DNA of 64,000 nt from Deltaproteobacteria bacterium (GCA_029262475.1 JAJCZG010000122.1:31789-95788), one strand, 5' to 3'; shown: positions 13,858-63,846, counted from the stretch's first letter. Numbers and translations are program-made. The notes: generated by a model not told the origin, from the letters alone.

Positions 13858-14691
13858 ATGAAGAAACGAAAAGACCCGCTAAAGGTCATATCCATTTCGA
13901 GCGGTAAGGGCGGGGTCGGGAAGACGAATGTCTCGGCGAATTTGGCCGTGGCCCTGGCCAGGCAAGGCTCAAGTGTAATCGTGCTGGATGCCGATCTTGG
14001 GTTAGGAAACCTTGACGTGCTTCTGGGGCTAGCTCCGAGGTTCAACTTCGGGCACGTCATAAGGGGTGAAAAGACCCTTGAGGAAATTATAGTCGACGGT
14101 CCGGACGGGGTGAGGATAATCCCAGCCGCTTCGGGGATTCAGGAGCTTACCACCCTCGATGCCAATCAGAAGATAAATCTCTTCAGCCAGGTGGAAAACC
14201 TAAATGACAAAGTCGATATACTGCTAATAGATACAGCTGCGGGGATATCGCATAACGTACTCTTCTTTAACCTCGTGGCAGCCGAGAAGATAATCGTGGC
14301 AAACCCGGAGCCTACGTCCATAATCGACGCATACGCCCTTATGAAGGTCCTCCATCTAAAGCATGGGGAGAAGAAATTCAACCTCCTCGTGAACCAGGCC
14401 AGGAACAAGGATGACGGGCTTGAAGTCTACAGGAATATTACCGTCGTCTCTGACAAGTATCTTAATGTTTCACTCGACTACCTTGGCTACATACCTTATG
14501 ACGAGAATTTACCAAAGGCGGTAAGACAGCAAAAGGCGGTGCTTGAAGTATACCCTGATTCAGAGTCATCCAAGGGTTTTATGAGACTGGCTGAGGTCGT
14601 AAGAGAATTTCCGCCTTCTGAGTTTAACGATAATCTGCAATTCTTCATCGGCGAGGACGAGAATTCAGTAATGGAGCGTAACCCGGCATGA
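13858..14691 (+). CDS. flhG: MinD/ParA-type ATPase FlhG (FleN/YlxH), the flagellar number regulator
   Basis: Deviant Walker A (SSGKGGVGKTNVSANLAVALA) and its position after flhF. Confidence 0.9.
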   Translation: MKKRKDPLKVISISSGKGGVGKTNVSANLAVALARQGSSVIVLDADLGLGNLDVLLGLAPRFNFGHVIRGEKTLEEIIVDGPDGVRIIPAASGIQELTTLDANQKINLFSQVENLNDKVDILLIDTAAGISHNVLFFNLVAAEKIIVANPEPTSIIDAYALMKVLHLKHGEKKFNLLVNQARNKDDGLEVYRNITVVSDKYLNVSLDYLGYIPYDENLPKAVRQQKAVLEVYPDSESSKGFMRLAEVVREFPPSEFNDNLQFFIGEDENSVMERNPA

Positions 14692-15422
14692 ATAATCTAG
14701 AGATGCTTCAAGGCACAAAGGAGGAGAGGGACTCTTTCACAATGGAGTATGCCCCCCTCGTTAAGATCATAGCCATGCGTTTGGCTATGCGTCTGCCCTC
14801 TCATATCGACGTGGAAGATCTTATTAACGTCGGAGTCGCCGGACTCCTTGAGTCCATAGACAGGTTCGACGCCTCCAGGGGCGTTAAGATTGAAACGTAC
14901 CTTACCTTCAGGATAAAGGGCGCTATGCTCGACGAACTGAGGCGTCTCGACTGGCTCCCCAGGTCTGTGAGGCAAAAGGCCCGCCATCTGGAAGAGGAGT
15001 TCCAGGCACTTGAAAATACCCTCGGAAGGTCTCCCGTGGAAGAGGAGATGGCCGAGCACCTTGGCATAGGGATGGATGAGTATTACAAACTTCTTAACGA
15101 CGCAAGCGGCACTGCGGTGCTTAGCCTCGACGATATGGGCTTTTCCAGAGGCGAGGACGCCAGGAATATCCTGGAGTGCATATCCGACCCCAACTGCGTC
15201 GATCCTGTCGCCGAACTGGATCTTAAGGAAAATAAGGTGATTTTAAGCAGGACCATCGACGAACTCCCGGAGAAGGAGAAGCTGGTACTCTCCCTATACT
15301 ATTACGAGGACTTGAACCTTAAGGAGATTGGGAAGGTGCTCGGAGTGTCGGAATCCAGGGTCAGTCAACTCCACACGCAGGCAATACTGAAGCTCAAGAC
15401 AAGACTCCGGAAGGTTATGTAG
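14688..15422 (+). CDS. fliA: RNA polymerase sigma factor FliA (sigma28)
   Basis: Sigma70 region 2 and region 4 (YYYEDLNLKEIGKVLGVSESRVSQLHTQAILKLK). Its position after flhG is classic. Confidence 0.9.
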   Translation: MNNLEMLQGTKEERDSFTMEYAPLVKIIAMRLAMRLPSHIDVEDLINVGVAGLLESIDRFDASRGVKIETYLTFRIKGAMLDELRRLDWLPRSVRQKARHLEEEFQALENTLGRSPVEEEMAEHLGIGMDEYYKLLNDASGTAVLSLDDMGFSRGEDARNILECISDPNCVDPVAELDLKENKVILSRTIDELPEKEKLVLSLYYYEDLNLKEIGKVLGVSESRVSQLHTQAILKLKTRLRKVM

Positions 15423-34556: not shown

Positions 34557-34650
34557 TAATGGCTGTAAATTAACCTTTAATAACGTAAAATTTTGAAAAA
34601 TCTTAGCTTTTAGCAAGATGCTTGAAAATTAATTTTGCCAGGAGGGCGTA

Positions 34651-34890
34651 ATGCTTGTATTGACAAGGAAGTCGGGACAAGGCATCTGGATTGGTGACGA
34701 TGTACGCGTAGTTGTGCTCGATGTGAAGGAAGGCCACGTAAGGCTTGGAATCGAGGCTTCGAGAACCACACCTATACATAGAGACGAAGTATATCAACGC
34801 ATTCAGGAGCAGAATAGAAGGAGTGCGGCAATGGTGCCGGCGAATCTTTTTGCCAATATTGGCAATATTAAAACGACGATAAAAAAATGA
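34651..34890 (+). CDS. csrA: Carbon storage regulator CsrA (RNA-binding translational repressor)
   Basis: MLVLTRKSGQGIWIGDDVRVVVLDVKEGHVRLGIEASRTTPIHRDEV is a CsrA signature. Confidence 0.92.
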   Translation: MLVLTRKSGQGIWIGDDVRVVVLDVKEGHVRLGIEASRTTPIHRDEVYQRIQEQNRRSAAMVPANLFANIGNIKTTIKK

Positions 34891-35384
34891 CCGATATGAT
34901 TAAAATAAAGACTTCCCGCTTTGGTGATATAGAGATTGCCGGGGATAAGGTAATCACTTTCCCCAATGCCATACCGGGCTTTGCTGGGCTAAAACGCTTT
35001 GTCTTGCTGGATCACGACGCCGAGGGTCTCTTCAAGTGGCTTCAGTCCGTCGATGACCCCGATCTTGCCTTCCTGCTCTCTCCGCCCAACTACTTTAAGG
35101 CCGAGTTCCGGCTCCCGGAGAAGGCCTATCCCATAACAAGGATAGACGTAAAGTCCCCGGATGAAGTGGTTGTGATGACGATGGTATGCGTTCCGCAAGA
35201 CGACAGCAGCCATTTTACGTTGAATTTTAAGGGGCCGATTGTATTTAACTACTCAAATATGATGGCTATACAGTATATTGTAGATACCGATGACCCTGAG
35301 TACCCGTGCGATTTCAGGGTGGATATCGTCAAAAGCGGGCAGGATGCAAATACCGGCTCCAGGAGCGCCACCGAAGAGCGCTGA
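34887..35384 (+). CDS. fliW: Flagellar assembly factor FliW (CsrA antagonist that binds flagellin)
   Basis: FliW motif (FGDIEIAGDKVITFPNAIPGFAGLKRFVLL). It overlaps the csrA stop codon. Confidence 0.88.
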   Translation: MTDMIKIKTSRFGDIEIAGDKVITFPNAIPGFAGLKRFVLLDHDAEGLFKWLQSVDDPDLAFLLSPPNYFKAEFRLPEKAYPITRIDVKSPDEVVVMTMVCVPQDDSSHFTLNFKGPIVFNYSNMMAIQYIVDTDDPEYPCDFRVDIVKSGQDANTGSRSATEER

Positions 35385-35390
35385 CACCAC

Positions 35391-35422
35391 GCTCCGGCTT
35401 CCTTGCCGGAGCGTTTGCCTTC
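35391..35422 (+). terminator. Possible weak terminator hairpin after fliW
   Basis: GCTCCGGC-ttccttg-CCGGAGC stem-loop followed by GTTTGCCTTCT. The U-tract is imperfect. Confidence 0.35.
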
Positions 35423-53636: not shown

Positions 53637-55549
53637 CTGAAATATTTAATAAAAACATAAAAGCTTTAAGGAAGAAGAACCCGGCACTTGCCGAGCTCCT
53701 CTCAACCGTTGATGCAGAAGAGATTGTAGTTGAGGAAGCAAAGGCAGGGGAGAAGACCTTTACCTTCAAGGGCAAGTATTTTCATAGCCGCTATGACCCT
53801 GTTACCGAGGCCAAGCGGAGCGTCGAGCTCATTATGAAGAAGAAGCGCGACTGGATCCTGGTCTTTGGTCTCGGTTTCGGGTATGTGCCAAGTCTGCTCC
53901 TCGAAGAAGAGATCTATTCCGTTATGATCTATGAGCCAAGCCCGGGTCTCCTGCGCTCGATACTGGAGTCCGTAGATATGACCGGCCTTATAAGATCAGC
54001 CTCGGTTAAGTTTACTACGAGCCTGGATGATGTTAGAAAACTGGTGGACCAGAAGACCGACGGAGTTGAGGACATAGTCCAGTTCCAGACCGCGCCGTAT
54101 AAGAATACATTCGAAAAGGAGTTCATGGACTTCGCCTTTACGGTAAATAACGCCTACTCCAAGAGGAGGCTAAATATCAATACGCTCGTCTATTCTTCAA
54201 AGAGCTGGCTGGAGAATTATCTTGAGAATGTGTCGTCTCTTATCGAGAGTCCGACGATAGACGTCTTGAAGGATCAATTCGCAGGCTTGCCGACATTAAT
54301 AGTAGGCGCGGGGCCGTCCCTTGAGAAGAACGCTCACCTCATAAAAGAGGTAAAGGGCAAGGCCCTCATTGTCGCCGCTATCTCGGCGTATCGCCCTCTT
54401 TTGAAGTTCGGCGTAGTGCCGGACCTTGTGATATCGGCCGAGAAGGTCGCCCTCTCGACATTTTTCGCCAATGGTAAGGAGGACGAAGAGGTACGCCTCC
54501 TCCTGGCCGAGGTATCTAATCCGACCCTCTATACGGAGAGGAAGGTGAGGGAGAGGTATACTTATTTCTGCACCTATAACACCCTCTCCCGCGAGCACGC
54601 GGCCTTTTGGGGGAGCAGTTACTTTCCGGGCGGGAGCGGCAGCGTATCGACTACCGCACTCGATATAGCCCTCTATGCGGGCGCAAGCCCGGTTATACTC
54701 CTTGGTCAAGACCTCTCTTATTCAAACAATAAGACGCATGTTACAGGGAGCGTCTACGGAGAGCAAAAGCTGGAGTTCGGAAGAAACGGCGTTAATATTA
54801 AGGAGCAGGAGGTATATACCGCAGAGCCTATCGAAAGAAAAGGCGACCTCCTCTGGGTTGACGGTATGGACGGGAAGCTGATCCCGAGCTGCGCGGCCTG
54901 GGTAACGGTCCTTCAGTGGTTCGAAGATTACAGTGAGAGAATTAGTGGACAGGAGAATCCTCCGGTTCTTATAAATTCCTCCGAAGGCGCGGCGGCTATA
55001 AAGGGTTATGAGAATATGCCCTTCTCCGCAGTCATAGAAAAGTATTTTAATAATAGCGACGAGCGCACTGAAAGCAGTGCCGTGGAGGAGGCGTTCCGAA
55101 GGGTTGATAACACCTCCGTTGATGTCGATTGGCAGGCCCTCTACAACTCCTTTGATATCTTCTTTGTTTCACTCGGGAAGATCGAAAAGATCGCCGACCA
55201 AATAGTTAGTAAGGCTAAAAAGCTAAGGAAAACTATAGAATCGTCGGGGCTTTCGCCGGAGCTCCTTAGCGCGACAAGAAAGATAAGGGGCCTTGAGAAG
55301 AAGCTCTTCAAGATTGTAAAGGACGCCCTCTTCCTCCTTGAAGCCCTGGCGGCCCTGGACCATGCCCTGAAGCTCCAGCAGAAGAATGAAGAGCTAATTG
55401 AGGACGATAAGGAGCAGGCGTTAAAAGATTTAAAACACGTTATTCAGACCTACAGCGTAGTTGCCGTTAACGCCAGACACTTCATAAAACTTATAAAAGA
55501 GGCGAGAAGAAGCACCGAAGAGAAGCTTAAGGGCGTCGCCGCGATTTAA
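53633..55549 (+). CDS. maf: Motility accessory factor (Maf, DUF115/MptE-like): a putative flagellin nonulosonic-acid glycosyltransferase
   Basis: Maf-type N-terminus (IFNKNIKALRKKNPALAELL). Central DUF115 motif (LIVGAGPSL...VPDLVISAEK). The size (about 640 aa) and position next to pse genes and flagellin also fit. Confidence 0.75.
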   Translation: MTEIFNKNIKALRKKNPALAELLSTVDAEEIVVEEAKAGEKTFTFKGKYFHSRYDPVTEAKRSVELIMKKKRDWILVFGLGFGYVPSLLLEEEIYSVMIYEPSPGLLRSILESVDMTGLIRSASVKFTTSLDDVRKLVDQKTDGVEDIVQFQTAPYKNTFEKEFMDFAFTVNNAYSKRRLNINTLVYSSKSWLENYLENVSSLIESPTIDVLKDQFAGLPTLIVGAGPSLEKNAHLIKEVKGKALIVAAISAYRPLLKFGVVPDLVISAEKVALSTFFANGKEDEEVRLLLAEVSNPTLYTERKVRERYTYFCTYNTLSREHAAFWGSSYFPGGSGSVSTTALDIALYAGASPVILLGQDLSYSNNKTHVTGSVYGEQKLEFGRNGVNIKEQEVYTAEPIERKGDLLWVDGMDGKLIPSCAAWVTVLQWFEDYSERISGQENPPVLINSSEGAAAIKGYENMPFSAVIEKYFNNSDERTESSAVEEAFRRVDNTSVDVDWQALYNSFDIFFVSLGKIEKIADQIVSKAKKLRKTIESSGLSPELLSATRKIRGLEKKLFKIVKDALFLLEALAALDHALKLQQKNEELIEDDKEQALKDLKHVIQTYSVVAVNARHFIKLIKEARRSTEEKLKGVAAI

Positions 55550-55588
55550 TTTCTTTTAAAAAATGTAAACTCTGGAGATAGAGCTTAA

Positions 55589-56212
55589 ATGACGCAGATA
55601 TTTTTAAACCACGTAAAAGTCGATTTTGAGATAGAAGGCGACGATACCGATGTCGGCTCATGCATAAAGGCGTTCGAAGACGAGCTTAACTCGTGCGCTC
55701 ATATCATTACAAGCATTTGCGTTGACGGCGAGGAGGTTACTGACTGGAGAGAAAAACCCTTCCAGTCAAAACTCCTGGTAGAGGTAAACGAGCTTAAAAT
55801 ACTTGCCTCAACGCGTGAAGAGCTAGTTTTGGTAGGCTTCGGGTCGTGTCTGCAATTGATACATTTTATATGTAGCGACTTGAATCTGGCGCTTAACAGG
55901 TACAGAGACGAGGAGTACGGTGAAGCCACCGAGGCGCTCTCAAGGGCACTGAACTCCTCACATGACTTAATGAAGACCTACGACGCCATTTCGGTCAATA
56001 TCCGTCTTTCGGTGACCCCACCCGGCTTCACCGGTCTCGTCGAGAGCCTCGAAACCCTAGTCGGCATTTTTGAAGATACAAAGGCAGCCCTGGACTCCGG
56101 TGACGTTATCGCCATAACCGACCTTATTGAATATGAGGCCATTCCCCTAGTAGAGCTTGTAGGAGAAGAGCTCACCCTCCTCTCCAATAAAGGAGATTCT
56201 CTGAAAGATTAA
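55589..56212 (+). CDS. Hypothetical protein (207 aa) between maf and flagellin
   Basis: ORF with a good ribosome-binding site (GGAGATAGAG) and no recognisable motif. Confidence 0.4.
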   Translation: MTQIFLNHVKVDFEIEGDDTDVGSCIKAFEDELNSCAHIITSICVDGEEVTDWREKPFQSKLLVEVNELKILASTREELVLVGFGSCLQLIHFICSDLNLALNRYRDEEYGEATEALSRALNSSHDLMKTYDAISVNIRLSVTPPGFTGLVESLETLVGIFEDTKAALDSGDVIAITDLIEYEAIPLVELVGEELTLLSNKGDSLKD

Positions 56213-56220
56213 AAAATCTT

Positions 56221-56248
56221 TAAAGTTTAACCTCAATCTACCGATAAA
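56221..56248 (+). promoter_or_regulatory. Sigma28 promoter of flagellin gene 1: TAAAGTTT-N-aCCGATAA
   Basis: TAAA-N15-ACCGATAA, the same sequence type as the cheW promoter, 180 nt upstream of the flagellin ATG. Confidence 0.65.
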
Positions 56249-56357
56249 TTAAACATAGGATAAGAGTTTAAAAGCGCTCATAGTCCTTTGAGTATAAATC
56301 GGGAATAGAAGGGAGGTTATAGCTGAAGTGAGGTGCATAATAAACACCTTAAAGAGA

Positions 56358-56402
56358 CCGCCGGAAGGCGGCGAGAGAGAATCGAATAATGGCAAGGAAG
56401 CC
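56358..56402 (+). promoter_or_regulatory. Two GGA-in-loop hairpins in the flagellin-1 5'UTR (candidate CsrA binding sites), upstream of the SD AAGGAGG
   Basis: CCGCC-GGAA-GGCGG (56358-56371) and GGC-AAGGAA-GCC (56391-56402). csrA and fliW are encoded in the window. Confidence 0.4.
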
Positions 56403-56428
56403 AATTTTTATACTAAGGAGGGTGAACA

Positions 56429-57256
56429 ATGGGACTCGTAATCAACACCAATATAGCATCACTTATTGCCCAGCAAAATCTTAATATATCCAATAAGCAG
56501 TTAAAACTGAGCGTACAGAGACTTAGCTCCGGCTACAGGGTCAACAGCGCGGCCGATGACGCCGCCGGTATGGCGAGGGCAAGCCTGTTACGCTCCAATT
56601 CGCGTGGAATTCAAGCCGCATTAAGGAATTCCAATGACGGTATAAGTGCGCTCGAAATAGCCGATCAGAGCTCGGCTAAGATCGGCGACATCCTTACGAG
56701 GATGAACGAGCTTGCCGTCAGCGCCTCACAGGGCACACTCGATACCGAGACGAGGGGATACTACCACCTTGAGTGGGCTGAGCTTGTTAAGGAGATAGAC
56801 CGAATAGCCAATGTTACCGAATTCGACGGTAAAAAGTTGCTAGCTTCGGGTATCACTGTTGATATCCAGATCGGTTTCAGAAGCTCCGCAGACGACAGGC
56901 TCACGATGACAATGGGAAAGATGATTGCCAGCACTCTCGGCCTTAACGCCACAGCAGCCGGCCTGAGCGCTCTAACAAGAGCACAGTCCGCAATGGGGCT
57001 GATAAAGACAGCCATAAAGAGCATCAACGGAACACGCGCCAGATTCGGTGCGTTTACTAACAGGCTCGACGCGACCATCTCCAACCTGCAGGTTACATTC
57101 ACCAATATTCAGGCGGCTGAAAGTAGGATAAGAGATGCTGACTTCGCGCACGAGACAGCGCTATTTACCAAGAATCAGATACTGGTACAGTCGGGAGTCT
57201 CCGTCTTGGCACAGGCCAATACGCTTCCGCAGGCTGCGCTGACACTGCTACAATAG
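56429..57256 (+). CDS. fliC: Flagellin (short, about 275 aa, D0/D1 only)
   Basis: MGLVINTNIASLIAQQNLNISNKQLKLSVQRLSSGYRVNSAADDAAGMA...C-terminal LVQSGVSVLAQANTLPQAALTLLQ. Confidence 0.95.
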   Translation: MGLVINTNIASLIAQQNLNISNKQLKLSVQRLSSGYRVNSAADDAAGMARASLLRSNSRGIQAALRNSNDGISALEIADQSSAKIGDILTRMNELAVSASQGTLDTETRGYYHLEWAELVKEIDRIANVTEFDGKKLLASGITVDIQIGFRSSADDRLTMTMGKMIASTLGLNATAAGLSALTRAQSAMGLIKTAIKSINGTRARFGAFTNRLDATISNLQVTFTNIQAAESRIRDADFAHETALFTKNQILVQSGVSVLAQANTLPQAALTLLQ

Positions 57257-57337
57257 GAGAGATCTCTAAACTTTTATGAACTTAGGATAAAATAAGTGCA
57301 TAACAGCCCACAGTCAAAGAATGTGGAGGTGATTACG

Positions 57338-57766
57338 ATGATTAACAGTAGTTCATTAGGCAGTATCGCAGTGAACACATTCGTCGCCTCGCAGATTAAT
57401 GACAGCCGTAGTTTTGTTAGGGCATCCCTTCCGGTTAAGACGATTGTTCCGAAGGCCACAATGGCCGAGGTCTCTCACTCCGATCCGGTGGAAGCAAGCG
57501 CTATATCCGTAAAAGCTAAAGAGGTCTCATCTAGCCTCAATCAACATTTCGGGCACATGGGTCTAAGGTTAAAAGCCGTTATAGATTATGAGTCCATGAA
57601 ATTCGTCGTCAAGGTCATAGACCCCGAGACGAATGAGGTTATTAAGCAGTTTCCGGAAGATAGCCTGATTAAGATAGGGAAGAAAGTCGAAAGTCTGCTA
57701 CAAACATACAGCGGTACGCAGAGTGAAAGCCTTGCGCTGCTAGAGGATTCAATGGTGACGACATGA
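57338..57766 (+). CDS. flaG: Flagellar protein FlaG (start at ATG 57338, after GGAGGTGA)
   Basis: C-terminal FlaG motif (MKFVVKVIDPETNEVIKQFPEDSLIKIGKKVESLL). Confidence 0.75.
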   Translation: MINSSSLGSIAVNTFVASQINDSRSFVRASLPVKTIVPKATMAEVSHSDPVEASAISVKAKEVSSSLNQHFGHMGLRLKAVIDYESMKFVVKVIDPETNEVIKQFPEDSLIKIGKKVESLLQTYSGTQSESLALLEDSMVTT

Positions 57767-59106
57767 GTATATCAGCTACTTCAGGAGTATCAAGCGGAAT
57801 AGATTACGCCAATCTCATAAAACAGTTGGTGAGTTTAAAGGCGGAGCCCGTAAATGCCATGCATCAAAAGGTTCAGGACCTTGAGCTTAAATCAGCCGCT
57901 TTTGAGACACTAAGTGCACGCCTGACAGACCTGAAGACTGCTGCAGCCAAGCTCAAGACCGCAACGGATTTTAAGGATTTTACCTCCGTAAGCTCAAACG
58001 AGGGGATTGTTTCGGCAACGGTCGGCTCCTCTGCTACCGGCGGTACATTCTCAATAGTTGTGGATAATCTTGCGCAGTCGCACAAAATAGCCGCAGATGG
58101 AGTGGCTCTGGAGACTACAGTCGTCTCCGCAGCCGGCGGCTCTTTCATCTATAACCTGGGCGGGGGAGCCGATCAGACGGTTACCCTCGCCGCAGGCGCA
58201 ACACTGGCGGATGTGAGGGACGGCATAAACGCCCTTAAATCTGGAGTGACGGCGACGATAGTTAACGACGGCGCCGCTTCCAACCCTGAGCGTCTGATAC
58301 TCACCTCGGATACCACCGGGGCCTCGAATACGGTTAACATTACACAAAATGATACGACTCTAGCCTTCAACACAACACTTCAGAGCGCACTTGACGCCAA
58401 CATAAAGGTCGATAACCTTTCTATAGCGCGCTCCACAAATATCATTAGTGACGTAATCACAGGTGTAACGCTTAACCTCTCATCGGCAGATCCAACCAAG
58501 ACTGTTTCACTCAACATTAAACGAGACGACACCGCGATAGCTGATAAGGTCTCCAACTTAGTTAATAAATTCAATAGCATGGTAGAATATATCAATACCA
58601 ATAACACTTACGACAGTAAGACGAAGGTAGCCGAGCCTTTCTTCGGCGAGACGGCGGCGCGTAATACGCTTGGCGACATGAGAAGCGTCCTTAGTAATAT
58701 TGTAACCGGACGCGTCTCGACGATGGACAGAGTCGTCTACGCCGGTATCACCACAAAGGACGGTAAATTATCATTTGACTCTGCTCAGTTCAAGGGGCTC
58801 CTTGGCACCAACTTCGATGACGTGATCAATCTATTTACAGATGATACGGGAACCGACGGTTTTGCGACCCTTCTAAGCGCCAAGATAGATACGTTTATCG
58901 ATTTCAGCGATGGCCGCATCACAAACAAAAACAAAAGCATTAAAAGTAGTATTGATCGATATAATGACGATATAGACAAGAAAGAGCTTGGCCTGACCTT
59001 GTACGAGGAGAGCCTGAGGCTGCAATTCGCCTCTCTTGAAGGCCTCCTTGTGGGACTTAAGTCCCAGAGCACATTTTTAAGTAATCTTCAATCGCAGTCA
59101 AAGTAA
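57763..59106 (+). CDS. fliD: Flagellar filament cap protein FliD
   Basis: N-terminus SSGIDYANLIKQLVSLKAEPVNAMHQKVQDLELKSAAFETLSARLTDLK. C-terminal coiled-coil. Confidence 0.9.
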   Translation: MSISATSGVSSGIDYANLIKQLVSLKAEPVNAMHQKVQDLELKSAAFETLSARLTDLKTAAAKLKTATDFKDFTSVSSNEGIVSATVGSSATGGTFSIVVDNLAQSHKIAADGVALETTVVSAAGGSFIYNLGGGADQTVTLAAGATLADVRDGINALKSGVTATIVNDGAASNPERLILTSDTTGASNTVNITQNDTTLAFNTTLQSALDANIKVDNLSIARSTNIISDVITGVTLNLSSADPTKTVSLNIKRDDTAIADKVSNLVNKFNSMVEYINTNNTYDSKTKVAEPFFGETAARNTLGDMRSVLSNIVTGRVSTMDRVVYAGITTKDGKLSFDSAQFKGLLGTNFDDVINLFTDDTGTDGFATLLSAKIDTFIDFSDGRITNKNKSIKSSIDRYNDDIDKKELGLTLYEESLRLQFASLEGLLVGLKSQSTFLSNLQSQSK

Positions 59107-59124
59107 TTTATCGGGAGGTGTGAA

Positions 59125-59550
59125 ATGCAACTGGCTAAGGAGTATCAGAAGAGTAATGTCATGACAGCTGACGGGGTTGGAGTAATCATACTACTTTACG
59201 ATGGTGTGATCGACTTCAATTCACGCGCCAAGACGGCAATAGACCAGGGTAGTATTGAGACCAGGAATAAGTTTATAAATAAATCCCTGGCCATAATAAG
59301 CGAGCTTGACAACGCCCTTGATATGGACCGGGGCGGAATAATCTCCGAGAATCTCACAAGGCTCTATGCGTTCATGATGGAGGAGCTTACAAAGGCCAAT
59401 ATCAATAACGACAAGGCCCCTCTCGATACCGTCTCAGGGCTTATAACGGAGCTTCGCAAGGGGTGGGAAGGCATTCAGAACAAGAAGGGCGAAGAGAGCG
59501 TGTCTTCACCTAACAAGAAAGACTCCGGCATGTTATCTGTTAAGTACTAA
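59125..59550 (+). CDS. fliS: Flagellin-specific chaperone FliS
   Basis: VIILLYDGVIDFNSRAKTAIDQG...LTRLYAFMMEELTKANINND. Confidence 0.88.
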   Translation: MQLAKEYQKSNVMTADGVGVIILLYDGVIDFNSRAKTAIDQGSIETRNKFINKSLAIISELDNALDMDRGGIISENLTRLYAFMMEELTKANINNDKAPLDTVSGLITELRKGWEGIQNKKGEESVSSPNKKDSGMLSVKY

Positions 59551-59584
59551 TGCCGTAAAACTCTAATTTTATAAAGGACGAGAC

Positions 59585-59911
59585 TTGATGAAGAACGAAT
59601 CTATCGTAAAGCTAAAGGCGATATACGATATATCCATGAGGCAGAATGCCAGCCTGGTAAACGGGCGCCTTGACGAGGCCCTTACCCTTCAGCAAGAGCG
59701 CGAAGCCATCGCATCCGAGATAGAGGGGGCCCGTGTGGTCTTCTCTAAGGGTGATAAAGAGGCCAGCGATATAGTCTCAGCTATAATGGATAATGACAAA
59801 ATGATCTCCATGCTGGCGGAGGAAAAGCTCTCAGGCGTTACGAAGAACCTTAGAAAATTGCAAGAGGCCGGGCCGGCGATAGCTGCCTACAATAATGAGT
59901 TAAAGCTTTGA
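59585..59911 (+). CDS. Small helical hypothetical protein downstream of fliS (FliT-like by position)
   Basis: 108 aa, alpha-helical composition. Position analogous to fliT in flaG-fliD-fliS-fliT operons. No sequence motif recognised. Confidence 0.3.
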   Translation: MMKNESIVKLKAIYDISMRQNASLVNGRLDEALTLQQEREAIASEIEGARVVFSKGDKEASDIVSAIMDNDKMISMLAEEKLSGVTKNLRKLQEAGPAIAAYNNELKL

Positions 59912-60147
59912 AGGAGTTATTTATGTACTCAGATTACTGATCTATCGACCGGGTAGAAGCAATTAATTCTCGAAGATTTTACAGTAAATTCATACACTTG
60001 AAGTGTCCGCTTTCTTTCATTCAAGCACGCTTCCGAATATCGTCTTTCACTAAGGATGGCTCACCAGCCTAACGCCTTCTTTAGTCTCCACTGAAGTGCC
60101 ACGCTCCAACCCGCACCGAAAAAAATCAAAAAAAAATAAAAAAACCC

Positions 60148-60174
60148 TAAAGAAAACTTAAAGTAGTCCGATAT
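60148..60174 (+). promoter_or_regulatory. Sigma28-like promoter for flagellin gene 2: TAAA-N15-tCCGATAT
   Basis: CTAAAGAAAACTTAAAGTAGTCCGATATAAC, about 215 nt upstream of the ATG and preceded by an A-rich tract. Confidence 0.45.
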
Positions 60175-60346
60175 AACATATGAAACATAGGTAGTGCGGA
60201 CATAACCAATTAGTCACCAACGCGCCGTCACCAGGCGTTTAAGCCGGAAAGGGGGAAGATCAAGAAGTTAGTAGAAATTTGAAAGGCATTAGAAGGTGAA
60301 TTAAGAAGGCTCTTTCCGCCTTATTCAGTACACCACCACTTATTTT

Positions 60347-60361
60347 TGGTACGGAAGCCAA
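60347..60361 (+). promoter_or_regulatory. GGA-in-loop hairpin (candidate CsrA site) in the flagellin-2 leader, followed by the SD GGAAGGAG
   Basis: TTGG-TACGGAAG-CCAA. Confidence 0.35.
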
Positions 60362-60388
60362 AAGTTAACTATGGAAGGAGAAATTACT

Positions 60389-61216
60389 ATGGGAGTAGTA
60401 ATCAATACCAACGTAGCATCACTAGTAGCACAGAATAACCTTTTTACAAATAACAAGGCACTAGCAGTAAACGTACAAAGACTCTCTTCAGGTTACAGGG
60501 TCAACAGCTCCGCAGATGACGCCTCAGGGCTTGCCAGGGCCGATCAGCTCAGGGCCAGCTCCAGAGGTGTACAGGCAGCACTCCGGAACGCAAACGACGG
60601 TATAAGCGCCCTTGAGATAGCCGATAAGAGCGCCCAGAAGATAAGCGAACTCCTCACGAGGATGTCTGAGCTTGCCGTTACCGCGTCTCAGGGTACTCTC
60701 GATACGAACTCCAGAACTTATATCCAGGACGAGTTCTCAAACCTGAGGGACGAAATATCTCGAATAGCCGAGGTTACCGAGTTCGATGGTAAAAAGCTTC
60801 TCGCCTCCGGTATCTCGATTAATATTCAGGTCGGGTTTAGAAACAACGCCAACAACCGAATGACTGTGACCATGGGTAATTTGAAGACTACCAATCTCGG
60901 TATCCAGGCATCTAAAGCATCTGTTGCCGCTCTGACAGGTGCGCAGAGAGCTATCAGCGTCATCGGTGCTGCTCTTACTACGCTTAATTCACAGAGAGCG
61001 CGTTTCGGTTCGTACACCAACAGGCTGGATGCGACGATATCCAACCTGCAGGTAACGTACACGAACTTCCAGGCCGCCGAAAGTAGAATCAGGGACCTGG
61101 ATTTTGCTCAAGAGACGGCTTCATTTACCAGGAACCAGATACTCGTTCAATCGGGTGTGTCTGTCCTGGCGCAGGCTAATACCCTGCCTCAGTCGGCCCT
61201 TTCGCTCATCGGTTAG
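60389..61216 (+). CDS. fliC: Flagellin paralogue 2 (start at MGVVINTN; the ORF track starts 18 nt earlier)
   Basis: MGVVINTNVASLVAQNNL...QRLSSGYRVNSSADDASGLARA...C-terminal LVQSGVSVLAQANTLPQSALSLIG. Confidence 0.92.
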   Translation: MGVVINTNVASLVAQNNLFTNNKALAVNVQRLSSGYRVNSSADDASGLARADQLRASSRGVQAALRNANDGISALEIADKSAQKISELLTRMSELAVTASQGTLDTNSRTYIQDEFSNLRDEISRIAEVTEFDGKKLLASGISINIQVGFRNNANNRMTVTMGNLKTTNLGIQASKASVAALTGAQRAISVIGAALTTLNSQRARFGSYTNRLDATISNLQVTYTNFQAAESRIRDLDFAQETASFTRNQILVQSGVSVLAQANTLPQSALSLIG

Positions 61217-61358
61217 GAGGAGATCTACTCCTCCATGCGTTAAGCGAATAGAACATTAAGAGGTTTTTTCGTGCGGGGGCCCTGGACAGTAACCATCTGA
61301 CGATGATTTCGCTTACAGGGTCTCCGCGCACCTCCCGTTCAAGAGACAGGGTGATGTT

Positions 61359-61853
61359 ATGGATATCGGAAATAAAATAGGTAGTATGGATGTAAAGGTC
61401 TATGCTACCGACACACAATCTAATAAAGAAGTTCAGTCTGCTTCAGGGAAGGCGGCCAGGGTAGTAGAGGAGGTCGTCGAGGATAGGTCTGTTCAGGATA
61501 AGAGGTCAAGTGGCGCCAAGGTCTTAGACTTTACTTCGCAAGCTGCGGGTCGTTCTAAAGAAGGTACCGCTCCAGTGGATGATCACGGAGAGGTTACGGA
61601 TATTTCGACCCTCGCAAGTGAGGTAAGGGATCAGCTCAGCAGCTTTAATACCGATGTCAGGGTAACTGTTGACAGCGACTCAGGCAACATAGTCTTTAAG
61701 ATTCTGGATCCTGAGACCAACGATCTTATAAAGCAGATACCGTCAGAAGAGATGCTGGAAATTTCCAGGCGGCTTGCTGAACTTCTTGAAGATTACTCTT
61801 CAATGAAAGAAGATCGCAAGAAGGTGATATCGGTCTTTCAGGATACTCTCTGA
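61359..61853 (+). CDS. flaG: FlaG paralogue 2
   Basis: C-terminus IVFKILDPETNDLIKQIPSEEMLEISRRLAELL, parallel to FlaG-1. Confidence 0.7.
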   Translation: MDIGNKIGSMDVKVYATDTQSNKEVQSASGKAARVVEEVVEDRSVQDKRSSGAKVLDFTSQAAGRSKEGTAPVDDHGEVTDISTLASEVRDQLSSFNTDVRVTVDSDSGNIVFKILDPETNDLIKQIPSEEMLEISRRLAELLEDYSSMKEDRKKVISVFQDTL

Positions 61854-61911
61854 TACGCAAAGTCGGTTACGAAGGCTTTTTTACGTTGGTAGGAGTATAG
61901 ATCAGTATTTG

Positions 61912-61950
61912 CACAGTTAGGGTTTTTTGTATCCAAAAACCCTAACTGTG
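61912..61950. terminator. Strong stem-loop terminator (16-bp perfect stem CACAGTTAGGGTTTTT / AAAAACCCTAACTGTG)
   Basis: Perfect long inverted repeat with T/A runs, after flaG-2. Confidence 0.7.
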
Positions 61951-62023
61951 CGGCTTTAAATAGTTCCTGAGCTTATGTTTTAGACTTCAGGTAGCAGCAA
62001 AGAACTTTTGGTAGAGCAGGAAG

Positions 62024-62029
62024 TATAAT
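62024..62029 (+). promoter_or_regulatory. Possible sigma70 -10 (TATAAT) upstream of the cytochrome gene; the -35 is poor
   Basis: Exact TATAAT 12 nt upstream of the ribosome-binding-site region. No good TTGACA at 16-18 bp. Confidence 0.25.
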
Positions 62030-62040
62030 CTTATTCACTT

Positions 62041-62961
62041 TTGAAAGGAGCAGTAAAAATGAAAAGAATTCTCACCGTAGCCCTTGGTCTTGGTCTCGTA
62101 TTCGGCGTTGCAGCCACATCCAACGCATTATCCCCGTCTGACTTCCCGGCTGACGTAGCCGCCGGTGGTATTGCGGGTTCACGTCATAACCTTGGCGCAT
62201 ACGGCGTCCATTTCAGGGCAGACAACAGTGACGGTAACGGCGGAACGACTGAAATTTGTGTATTCTGTCATACTCCTCACCACGGCGCAAGCCACGCCCC
62301 GTTATGGGCAAAGGGCACACAGTCAACGACCTACACCGCATACGGCACGACCGTAGCCGGTACCTTCGTTGCCGATAGCGACATAGGTGCAGCCACACTC
62401 GCCTGTCTAAGCTGTCACGATGGTGTCAACACCATTGATACCCTCGTAAACGCACCAGGTAAGGGTAACGACGGATCGAACAACACCAACAAGGTTGATT
62501 TTAACTGGACCTTCACCGAGGACAGTAACACCGTATCCGATATCATCGGCTCCACCAGGCTCAATATCGGTACGGACCTCACCAATGACCATCCGGTATC
62601 CGTATCCTACGAGATTAACAAGGCCTCGCTAAGGCCAACCAGTACATTGCTCTCAGACCTTCATATGACTTCGACTGGCTTCACCGCAGGCGATAATAAT
62701 GAGGGCGATTCCGCTACGACCACCGCGAACAGGTGGGCTGTAAAGGGTTACATCAACACTGGCGCCACGATTGGCGATCTCCTCAGGACCACCGCCAACA
62801 GGGTTGAGTGCTCATCGTGCCATGATCCGCACTTCAGCAACAAGACCTGGGACGAAGTTGAGTCCACCTGGGGCGGCGAAGCTGACGGCGACGGCATGTT
62901 CCTTAGAAGAGTCGGCGGTAACAGCGTATCCGGTGTTTGCAGGTCCTGCCACAACAAGTAA
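62041..62961 (+). CDS. Secreted tetraheme c-type cytochrome (four CxxCH motifs)
   Basis: Signal peptide (MKRILTVALGLGLVFGVAATSNA). CVFCH, CLSCH, CSSCH and CRSCH motifs, consistent with the Geobacter-type doubled paired-CXXCH family. Confidence 0.8.
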   Translation: MKGAVKMKRILTVALGLGLVFGVAATSNALSPSDFPADVAAGGIAGSRHNLGAYGVHFRADNSDGNGGTTEICVFCHTPHHGASHAPLWAKGTQSTTYTAYGTTVAGTFVADSDIGAATLACLSCHDGVNTIDTLVNAPGKGNDGSNNTNKVDFNWTFTEDSNTVSDIIGSTRLNIGTDLTNDHPVSVSYEINKASLRPTSTLLSDLHMTSTGFTAGDNNEGDSATTTANRWAVKGYINTGATIGDLLRTTANRVECSSCHDPHFSNKTWDEVESTWGGEADGDGMFLRRVGGNSVSGVCRSCHNK

Positions 62962-63011
62962 AAGAAGCGCCAGAACGTAAGTTGATTTTGGTAACTTGCC
63001 GGAATCAACAG

Positions 63012-63050
63012 GGAGGCGGGCTGAGAGCTCAGCCCGCCTCCTTTTTTTTA
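63012..63050 (+). terminator. Rho-independent terminator after the cytochrome gene
   Basis: GGAGGCGGGCTGAG / CTCAGCCCGCCTCC perfect stem plus T8. Confidence 0.85.
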
Positions 63051-63270
63051 AAAAAGCATTTATAGGAGAAAGAGACCGTTATATGAACGGGCCTCTTTAA
63101 TGTGGGGATCTTACCGAAGGAGAACGACTTTAACGCGTTACTTATGGAGAGAAGAATCTCTCCTGGTGTCAAAAAAGATGTTTATTTCTAACCTGTTATG
63201 GTAAAATTAAAGAAATGTCGTTTATGGTCTTTTATCGATACTGACTTTTTACCTGAGGAGAGTTTTTGAG

Positions 63271-63846
63271 ATGGAGAAAAAATTTATTTACGGCGTGGAA
63301 GAGACATTCCCCAATCAGAGAGAAGACTTCCGTATTGACGATACTCTTCCGCTCATTTATTCACCGTTAGGTGAGACTTCCCGCAATGTAGAACGCTCCT
63401 CTATTCACGACATCACCCCGATTCTCAGGAAGCTTAAACAGCGCAAGATGGACTCCGAGCTTCTCCTTCTAATTAAACTCTTCGACGAAAAACTGAACCA
63501 TATCATAAAGCAAACCTCCGGTGGCGAGGGTAGTGTCTATCTCCCGGGAGAAACCCCTTTACCAACAGACATTAATATCAGCGCCGGAGGCATCTGTTTT
63601 AGAAGTAAGGAATGCTTTAAGCCCGGTGAGGTCTTGAACCTGGTTATCGGGCTTCCGCCGCAGCCGTATACCCATATAAATATTTTAGGTGAGGTGTTAA
63701 GGTCCACTGAGCTCGAGGGCGTTGCTGAAGAGGATAAGAAGTTCAGAGTAGCGCTCAAATTTGTTCACATGGAAGATGAAGAGAGACAGGATATAACGAA
63801 ATACCTCTTCGATGTGCAGAGGAAGAGGGTAAGGTCCGGCAAATAG
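63271..63846 (+). CDS. PilZ-domain (c-di-GMP-binding) protein
   Basis: RxxxR (QREDFRID) and DxSxGG (DINISAGGICF) motifs, plus a PilZ-like C-terminal beta-barrel segment (FRVALKFVHMEDEERQDITKYLF). The spacing between the motifs is longer than canonical. Confidence 0.5.
   Translation: MEKKFIYGVEETFPNQREDFRIDDTLPLIYSPLGETSRNVERSSIHDITPILRKLKQRKMDSELLLLIKLFDEKLNHIIKQTSGGEGSVYLPGETPLPTDINISAGGICFRSKECFKPGEVLNLVIGLPPQPYTHINILGEVLRSTELEGVAEEDKKFRVALKFVHMEDEERQDITKYLFDVQRKRVRSGK

Follow-up and report, generated by a model that had tools for sequence, protein, structure and literature searches.

GGA-loop leader hairpins point to FliW-CsrA control of two flagellin mRNAs in an uncultured Thermodesulfobacteriota-type bacterium

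Introduction

Is the translation of two flagellin mRNAs in one bacterium governed by a FliW-CsrA partner switch? The question is raised by a 64,000-nucleotide (nt) stretch of DNA assigned to a Deltaproteobacteria bacterium (GCA_029262475.1, JAJCZG010000122.1:31789-95788; hereafter the window, with positions counted from its first letter). The window encodes two flagellins together with csrA and fliW, and a sequence-only reading had proposed that FliW-CsrA control acts on both flagellin genes through leader hairpins with GGA in the loop. This regulatory circuit has been established in, or reported from, Bacillus, Campylobacter, Clostridioides, Borrelia, Helicobacter, Treponema and Geobacter, and is regarded as ancestral in flagellated bacteria. 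The Hag-FliW-CsrA partner switch of Bacillus subtilis reportedly goes back to Yakhnin in 2007 and Mukherjee in 2011, and Radomska is said to have also described the CsrA-FliW-flaA network of Campylobacter jejuni in 2016. In the B. subtilis system (reviews: PMC7652899, PMC6529632), CsrA has two GGA-containing binding sites on the hag mRNA, and the one covering the Shine-Dalgarno (SD) sequence blocks the ribosome (PMC7652899, PMC13443453). In C. jejuni, the flaA leader forms a pair of stem-loops (SL1 and SL2), each with an ANGGA loop, of which SL2 covers the ribosome-binding site (Dugar 2016, PMC4894983), and CsrA binds the flaA, flaB and flaG leaders (PMC4894983). We combined protein family assignment, promoter scans, RNA folding and comparison with close relatives with a survey of flagellin leaders. 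The genes and elements of the flagellin modules, the csrA-fliW locus and the island between them all lie on the plus strand.

Results and discussion

Both flagellin leaders combine a GGA hairpin loop with a GGA over the SD. Upstream of flagellin 1 (56429-57256; 275 amino acids, Pfam Flagellin_N and Flagellin_C), the hairpin UGGC-AAGGAA-GCCA (56390-56403), recovered by folding and by pattern search, is followed by the SD AAGGAGG (56415-56421). Upstream of flagellin 2 (60389-61216; 275 amino acids, assigned by Pfam), the hairpin AUUUUUGGU-ACGGAA-GCCAAAAGU (60342-60365), identified from the fold and from relatives, has the arms atttttggt and gccaaaagt around ACGGAA and precedes the SD GGAAGGAG (60373-60380), which holds two GGA motifs. 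We propose both six-base-loop hairpins as putative high-affinity CsrA sites, that of flagellin 1 being BS1/SL1-like, and the flagellin 1 SD as a candidate second site. The hairpin GGA stands 21 nt from the first SD GGA in leader 1 and 20 nt in leader 2. A further hairpin in leader 1, CCGCC-GGAA-GGCGG (56358-56371), appears to be a weaker candidate because GGAA is a GNRA-type four-base loop on a GC-rich stem. The hairpins that the sequence-only reading had placed at 56358-56371, 56391-56402 and 60347-60361 are present at those positions, and all three appear in the minimum-free-energy folds of the leaders. Six-base-loop hairpins of the form A-N-GGA-N occur ten times on the plus strand of the window (3.3 expected), and only the two flagellin ones stand just 5' of an SD; by our own arithmetic, two 40-nt leader windows would each contain one by chance with a probability of ~4e-6. 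The leaders of flgM and cheW have GGA at the SD only. Rfam returned no match for the whole window at gathering thresholds, nor for 55500-62100 at E<=1; the flagellin-leader hairpin therefore matches no Rfam family.

Both flagellin genes are preceded by sigma-28-type promoters, defined here by a TAAAG-type -35 element and a CCGATA(A/T) -10 element ~11 nt apart, a position 5' of late genes, and fliA in the genome. Scanning with the pattern TAAA-N-CGATA(A/T) gave four intergenic sites of identical geometry and of this type, lying 5' of cheW (24856), flgM (31050), flagellin 1 and flagellin 2, and the gene at 14688-15422 encodes a sigma factor of FliA size. The flagellin 1 promoter (TAAAGTTT-N11-ACCGATAA, 56221-56247) is invariant in relatives; that of flagellin 2 (TAAAGAAA-N11-TCCGATAT, 60148-60174) is preceded by an A-rich tract and is also conserved. 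Their positions imply leader lengths of ~174 nt for flagellin 1 and ~207 nt for flagellin 2, not far from the 180-240 nt first suggested. A scan of the region for sigma-70 promoters and terminators gave sites no more numerous than in shuffled sequence.

Comparison with relatives set these elements apart from the surrounding leader. Homologues of flagellin 1 come almost exclusively from uncultured "Deltaproteobacteria" or Thermodesulfobacteriota, and a 7.8-kb contig of sequencing run SRR15505516 encodes an identical protein. A scan of a genome collection with flagellin 1 recovered relatives of <=52% identity only; the close ones came from protein searches and contig look-ups. We compared three of these, L049, L053 and L051, with flagellin identities of 95%, 94% and 69%, respectively. 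The order fla-flaG-fliD-fliS-fliT-fla-flaG is kept in L049 and L051, and, as far as readable, in L053, a low-coverage assembly with broken gene calls. The four genomes share, without change or nearly so, the sigma-28 promoter, the six-base-loop hairpin and the stretch from SD (itself invariant in both leaders) to start codon, while the remainder of the leader has strongly diverged in L051. The leader 1 hairpin (GGCAAGGAAGCC) is invariant and present twice in tandem in L051; the leader 2 hairpin is conserved, with a C-to-U change in the L051 loop. In L049, one pair of the four-base-loop hairpin at 56358-56371 has undergone a compensatory change (C-G to U-A); in L053 the stem has G-U wobbles, and in L051 the hairpin is absent.

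L051 also carries a third sigma-28-like promoter 5' of its flagellin 1 (L051:6395-7000; GCA_029262535.1, JAJCZF010000082.1). It is followed by a short leader with two tandem GGCAAGGAAGCC hairpins and an SD, and by an open reading frame (ORF) of 54 codons whose first ~38 residues are flagellin-like before it diverges and stops. This is a truncated flagellin remnant with intact CsrA-type sites, and it could serve as a decoy for CsrA.

The same architecture recurs far beyond these relatives. Genome and metagenome scans yielded 133 flagellin loci and 174 distinct leaders, of which 112 have a GGA-loop hairpin between -80 and -12, about five times the 21.8 found in shuffles. For a test blind to pairing, we anchored each leader on its last GGA between -70 and -26 and asked whether the six-base-loop geometry around it pairs. 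Among the anchored stem cells, 62.3% pair (43.0 +/- 1.6% in shuffles), and the covariation score is 0.450 against 0.193 in shuffles, and is no higher than 0.20 with partners offset by 1-3 columns. Two-sided changes occur in all six stem pairs while the GGA stays fixed, and the median spacing from hairpin to SD GGA is 24.5 nt. The leader hairpin tracks the presence of csrA/fliW: it is found in 28/42 leaders from loci with csrA or fliW in the fetched flank, and in 1/27 leaders from alpha-, beta-, gamma- and zeta-proteobacterial loci, in whose fetched flanks neither gene was detected. The loop context common to the leaders is CAAGGAUG. We take this to agree with the CsrA consensus RUACARGGAUGU that Dubey is said to have derived in 2005 by systematic evolution of ligands by exponential enrichment (SELEX).

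Both protein partners of the proposed switch are encoded in the window. The sequence-only reading had put csrA and fliW 20 kb upstream; csrA (34651-34890; 79 amino acids, Pfam CsrA E=2.2e-23) and fliW (34887-35384; 165 amino acids, Pfam FliW E=1.4e-30, 106 bits) lie ~21 kb 5' of flagellin 1, at the end of a flgM-flgN-flgK-flgL cluster. The two genes share an ATGA, in which the start codon of fliW overlaps the stop codon of csrA. CsrA matches its Pfam profile over positions 1-53 of 53 (82 bits), including the RNA-binding core, and aligns end to end with solved CsrA chains, among them 5dmb_D; FliW matches 5dmb_A, its counterpart in the solved structure of the CsrA-FliW complex (5dmb). CsrA has R44, N55 and a C-terminal extension (79 amino acids, compared with 61 in the E. 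coli-type chain 1y00_A), and by its extension and N55 is predicted to be of the FliW-binding type. N55 is reported as required for CsrA-FliW binding in Geobacter (PMC13407953), and its role in FliW-binding CsrA is also described elsewhere (PMC7652899). On the flagellin side, FliW contacts residues 11-34, 50-72 and 240-260 of B. subtilis Hag (PMC6070490). The best-conserved parts of the two flagellins here are the N- and C-terminal helical segments (72-84% identity, a figure from comparing the paralogues with each other).

Two features at the csrA-fliW locus resemble the leader elements. The csrA SD (AGGAGGG, within 34640-34680) contains GGA, and codons 4-9 of csrA (34660-34675) form the hairpin UUGAC-AAGGAA-GUCGG; these sites could serve autoregulation or be a mere consequence of coding the conserved LTRK motif. 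Directly after fliW, a 10-bp GC-rich hairpin (35389-35414; ACGCUCCGGC-UUCCUU-GCCGGAGCGU, -23.6 kcal/mol, z=-3.4), picked up as a minus-strand AAGGAA hairpin, is likely a terminator. The 12 bases at its centre match the reverse complement of the leader 1 hairpin GGCAAGGAAGCC exactly (~0.008 chance matches estimated per window). Among more distant csrA-fliW loci, a set that does not cover the closest relatives, we found no comparable hairpin after fliW, and the antisense match is probably coincidental.

The genes, promoters and RNA elements, their conservation and covariation, and the association with csrA/fliW are observations. With a probability of roughly 0.8, a FliW-CsrA partner switch is the best explanation for them at both flagellin mRNAs, and the in silico evidence (genes, two-site leaders, conservation with covariation, and csrA/fliW association) supports the fit to this switch that had been proposed; all its sequence-level requirements appear to be in place. 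By analogy with the Bacillus and Campylobacter systems, RNA binding by CsrA, binding of FliW to either flagellin and the feedback between them would work as follows. Both flagellin genes would be transcribed as late sigma-28 genes and their translation held down by CsrA, a CsrA dimer clamping the six-base-loop GGA and the SD GGA 20-21 nt downstream and thereby blocking the ribosome. FliW, whose gene overlaps csrA, would bind cytoplasmic flagellin or CsrA. Once the hook-basal body is complete and flagellin is exported, FliW would be freed to capture CsrA, raising flagellin translation, until re-accumulating flagellin takes FliW back and CsrA represses again.

Several points weigh against this interpretation. 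The organism, an uncultured sulfate-reducer-like bacterium, is known from metagenome assemblies only, and the transcription start sites were deduced from promoter motifs. Taken as a whole, leader 2 folds no better than shuffles (z=-0.34), and segments complementary to the SD in both leaders could regulate translation without CsrA. In C. jejuni, the flaB, flaG and flgI leaders have GGA sites and bind CsrA, yet the corresponding protein levels are little altered in a csrA mutant; GGA sites therefore do not guarantee strong regulation.

The SD-complementary segments are the basis of the alternative that intrinsic RNA structure governs these leaders, sequestering the ribosome-binding site, with the hairpins as folding or stability elements and CsrA as a minor or structure-remodelling factor. 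In leader 1, RNAalifold on three close relatives pairs the segment CACCUU (56345-56350) with AGGGUG of the SD, and the proximal leader folds better than shuffles (z=-3.55). In leader 2, it pairs CUCUUUCC (60310-60317) with the SD GGAAGGAG, and a CUCUUCC element occupies the equivalent place in the 69%-identical L051. Neither pairing is backed by clean compensatory changes: the pairs are invariant in close relatives, and three of the eight SD pairs of leader 2 are broken in L051. A longer-range SD helix of leader 1 (CCUUUGAGUAUAAA with UUUAUACUAAGG), predicted from the single sequence, was dropped on account of three mismatches in the closest, 95%-identical relative. The constant features across phyla are the GGA loop and the distance from it to the SD rather than any anti-SD segment, and we consider control by intrinsic structure unlikely.

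Further candidates and features in the leaders were noted alongside. An upstream ORF in leader 1 (37 codons, GTG at ~56329, overlapping the flagellin start) was rejected as coding because its differences are mostly amino-acid-changing and its frame, open in L049 and L053, is absent in L051; this short ORF lies behind the SD-like element of leader 1 and is probably non-coding. In leader 2, ACCACCAC (60330-60339) is invariant in all four genomes, and the L051 copy is the loop of a fully paired 11-bp hairpin, CAUUAGCAUUA-CCACCAC-UAAUGCUAAUG.

Each leader also carries a GGA-rich SD-like element further upstream: GAAGGGAGG in leader 1 (56308-56317, found by pattern, of a class enriched in flagellin leaders) and CCGGAAAGGGGGAAG in leader 2 (60244-60258, a conserved block in the four genomes, with GAAAGGAGGAA as its L051 counterpart). 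Together with the SD-complementary segments, these are the least usual features of the leaders. They could be a third CsrA site, or a stabiliser or standby site resembling STAB-SD, the 5' stabiliser of Bacillus thuringiensis cryIIIA, a type defined by a strong SD-like sequence well 5' of the gene's start codon, followed by no start codon of its own, that raises mRNA stability. The second option leads to another alternative, that the upstream GGAGG and the hairpins are chiefly mRNA-stability determinants of a very abundant transcript whose 5' end would be shielded by 30S subunits or hairpins, and that there is no translational switch. A near-perfect SD-like RGGAGG is indeed enriched 5' of the hairpin (32/107 hairpin-bearing leaders against 10.1 +/- 2.6 in shuffles), and several copies (e.g. 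in loci L003, L054, L062 and L067) read GAAAGGAGG(TG), which we take to be the STAB-SD sequence of Agaisse and Lereclus from 1996. Stabilisation accounts for the upstream element but leaves the phylum-spanning A-N-GGA-N loop ~20-25 nt from the SD and the link to csrA/fliW unexplained; the distance from the element to the promoter varies (~11-78 nt), and the element is also plausible as a third CsrA site. A literature search combining STAB-SD and flagellin gave no relevant result. We regard a chiefly stabilising role as improbable. Coincidence would make the hairpins chance features of two duplicated leaders, whose common features are not independent because both leaders descend from one duplication. 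It is very improbable: the pattern recurs ~5-fold above shuffles in many unrelated flagellin leaders with different stems, and the covariation and the csrA/fliW association contradict it as well.

A broader interpretation, which we put forward tentatively and rather doubt, is that flagellin leaders in this lineage and in many other FliW-encoding bacteria are, unlike the two-site leader described so far, three-part devices comprising an upstream near-perfect SD-like GGAGG, a GGA hairpin, and an SD with its complementary segment, with CsrA choosing between leader folds and the two sigma-28 flagellins tuned differently. If so, the upstream GGAGG would be a third CsrA site or a 30S standby or stabilising site, and the tuning of the flagellins would set filament composition.

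The partner switch proposed here has much in common with that of B. subtilis: csrA and fliW sit side by side, closing a flgM-flgN-flgK-flgL late cluster, flagellin expression is sigma-28 (SigD)-dependent, the leader combines a stem-loop GGA with an SD GGA, and CsrA has a C-terminal extension and N55. It differs in gene order (csrA-fliW here, fliW-csrA there), in having two flagellin targets, in the ~20 kb of glycosylation genes between fliW and the flagellins, in its longer leaders with extra GGA and SD-like elements, and in its host, an uncultured Thermodesulfobacteriota-type bacterium. Shared with C. jejuni are stem-loop ANGGA motifs in the leader, two flagellins plus flaG, a Maf-type gene, and pseudaminic-acid flagellin glycosylation, established there and predicted from genes here. 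In C. jejuni, however, flaA is sigma-28- and flaB sigma-54-dependent, CsrA has high affinity for flaA only, and the flaA leader is just 45 nt, whereas both flagellins here have a sigma-28-type promoter and a consensus-like hairpin site. For the spirochete Treponema denticola, whose flagella are periplasmic, PMC9481697 reports CsrA sites close to the SDs of both flaB1 and flaB2, which lie downstream of a flgN-flgK-flgL-fliW-csrA cluster (a preliminary statement rather than a full study). That cluster likewise ends in fliW and csrA, and more than one flagellin mRNA has predicted CsrA sites. Geobacter sulfurreducens, also formerly placed in Deltaproteobacteria, is the phylogenetically nearest studied system; two reports (PMC13407953, PMC11934962) describe N55-dependent CsrA-FliW binding and, unlike the present case, concern biofilm formation and electron transfer. 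Our literature search found no analysis of a Geobacter flagellin leader. The sequence-only reading's proposal of two flagellins as targets is supported by the predicted sites in both leaders; CsrA control of two flagellins is not new, with precedents in C. jejuni (PMC4894983) and T. denticola (PMC9481697). What stands out here is the combination of sigma-28 promoters and consensus-like hairpins on both paralogues, unusually long leaders, and a module split by a glycosylation island.

This island (35544-55549) fills the ~20 kb from fliW to flagellin 1 and is of the pseudaminic-acid type. Matches to PseB (530 bits) and PseC (472 bits) exceed their NCBIfam cut-offs; weaker ones are NeuB/PseI-, PseG- and PseF-like, and MptE-like/Maf (Maf/PseD-like) and GH57 proteins are also encoded. 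In the distant relatives L001, L003, L067 and L070, csrA-fliW directly adjoins the flagellin promoter, so that the island appears to have been inserted into what is otherwise a compact module.

The flagellin genes themselves form two modules, and all genes between 55.5 and 62 kb lie on the plus strand. The expectation of two short paralogues with similar termini and a divergent centre was borne out: overall identity is 68%, with 72-84% in the terminal segments and 40% over residues 151-200. We place the start of flagellin 2 at ATG 60389 (MGVVINTN...), behind GGAAGGAG, instead of 60371 as in the ORF list; this start aligns residue for residue with flagellin 1, and both proteins are therefore 275 amino acids long. 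Each flagellin is followed, as anticipated, by its own flaG: copy 1 (57338-57766; 142 amino acids, ATG start behind GGAGG, Pfam FlaG E=8.8e-10) and copy 2 (61359-61853; 164 amino acids, E=2.9e-14), 34% identical across 77 amino acids. Between the modules (57763-59911) lie fliD (57763-59106; Pfam FliD_N/FliD_C), fliS (59125-59550; Pfam FliS) and a fliT-like gene (59585-59911; FliT match under the Pfam cut-off). The region 59912-60147, 5' of the flagellin 2 promoter, lacks any ORF and resembles neither a flagellin leader nor a flagellin gene, and its conservation in L049 fits plain relatedness.

A similar palindrome after each flagellin had also been described; both are present, and only that of flagellin 2 forms a stable hairpin. 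Flagellin 1 ends in TAG-GAGAGATCTCT (57254-57267), the palindrome AGAGATCTCT (57258-57267) directly after the stop forming a weak 4-bp hairpin with shallow conservation. Flagellin 2 ends in TAG-GAGGAGATCTACTCCTCC (61214-61234), where GGAGGAG-AUCUA-CUCCUCC (61216-61234) folds into a hairpin overlapping the stop. Both palindromes are kept in the 95%-identical L049, that of flagellin 2 with G-U changes, and absent in the 69%-identical L051. Further along the spacer between flagellin 2 and flaG copy 2 is a very stable long hairpin (61271-61330; spacer fold -54.8 kcal/mol, z=-4.1), followed by CACCUCCC near the flaG SD and mostly kept in L049.

Flanking the modules, a 207-amino-acid protein (55589-56212) matching only TP0873_N / DUF8042 is encoded directly 5' of flagellin 1, an arrangement shared by L049, L051 and L053. 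After the second module, 62041-63846 encodes a multihaem cytochrome (CXXCH repeats, MtrC/MtrF-like matches) and a PilZ-domain protein; the position of the PilZ gene is shared by L049 and L051, that of the cytochrome by L049.

Conclusions

The circuit proposed for this locus is a known one and opens no new question; the enriched upstream SD-like element is the only part that might. The circuit's presence here would add an uncultured Thermodesulfobacteriota-type lineage to those in which partner switching keeps flagellin levels in balance. The RNA signature, a GGA six-base-loop hairpin ~20-25 nt from a GGA-containing SD, is uniform across phyla and is useful for annotation, as it predicts CsrA control of flagellin genes from sequence.

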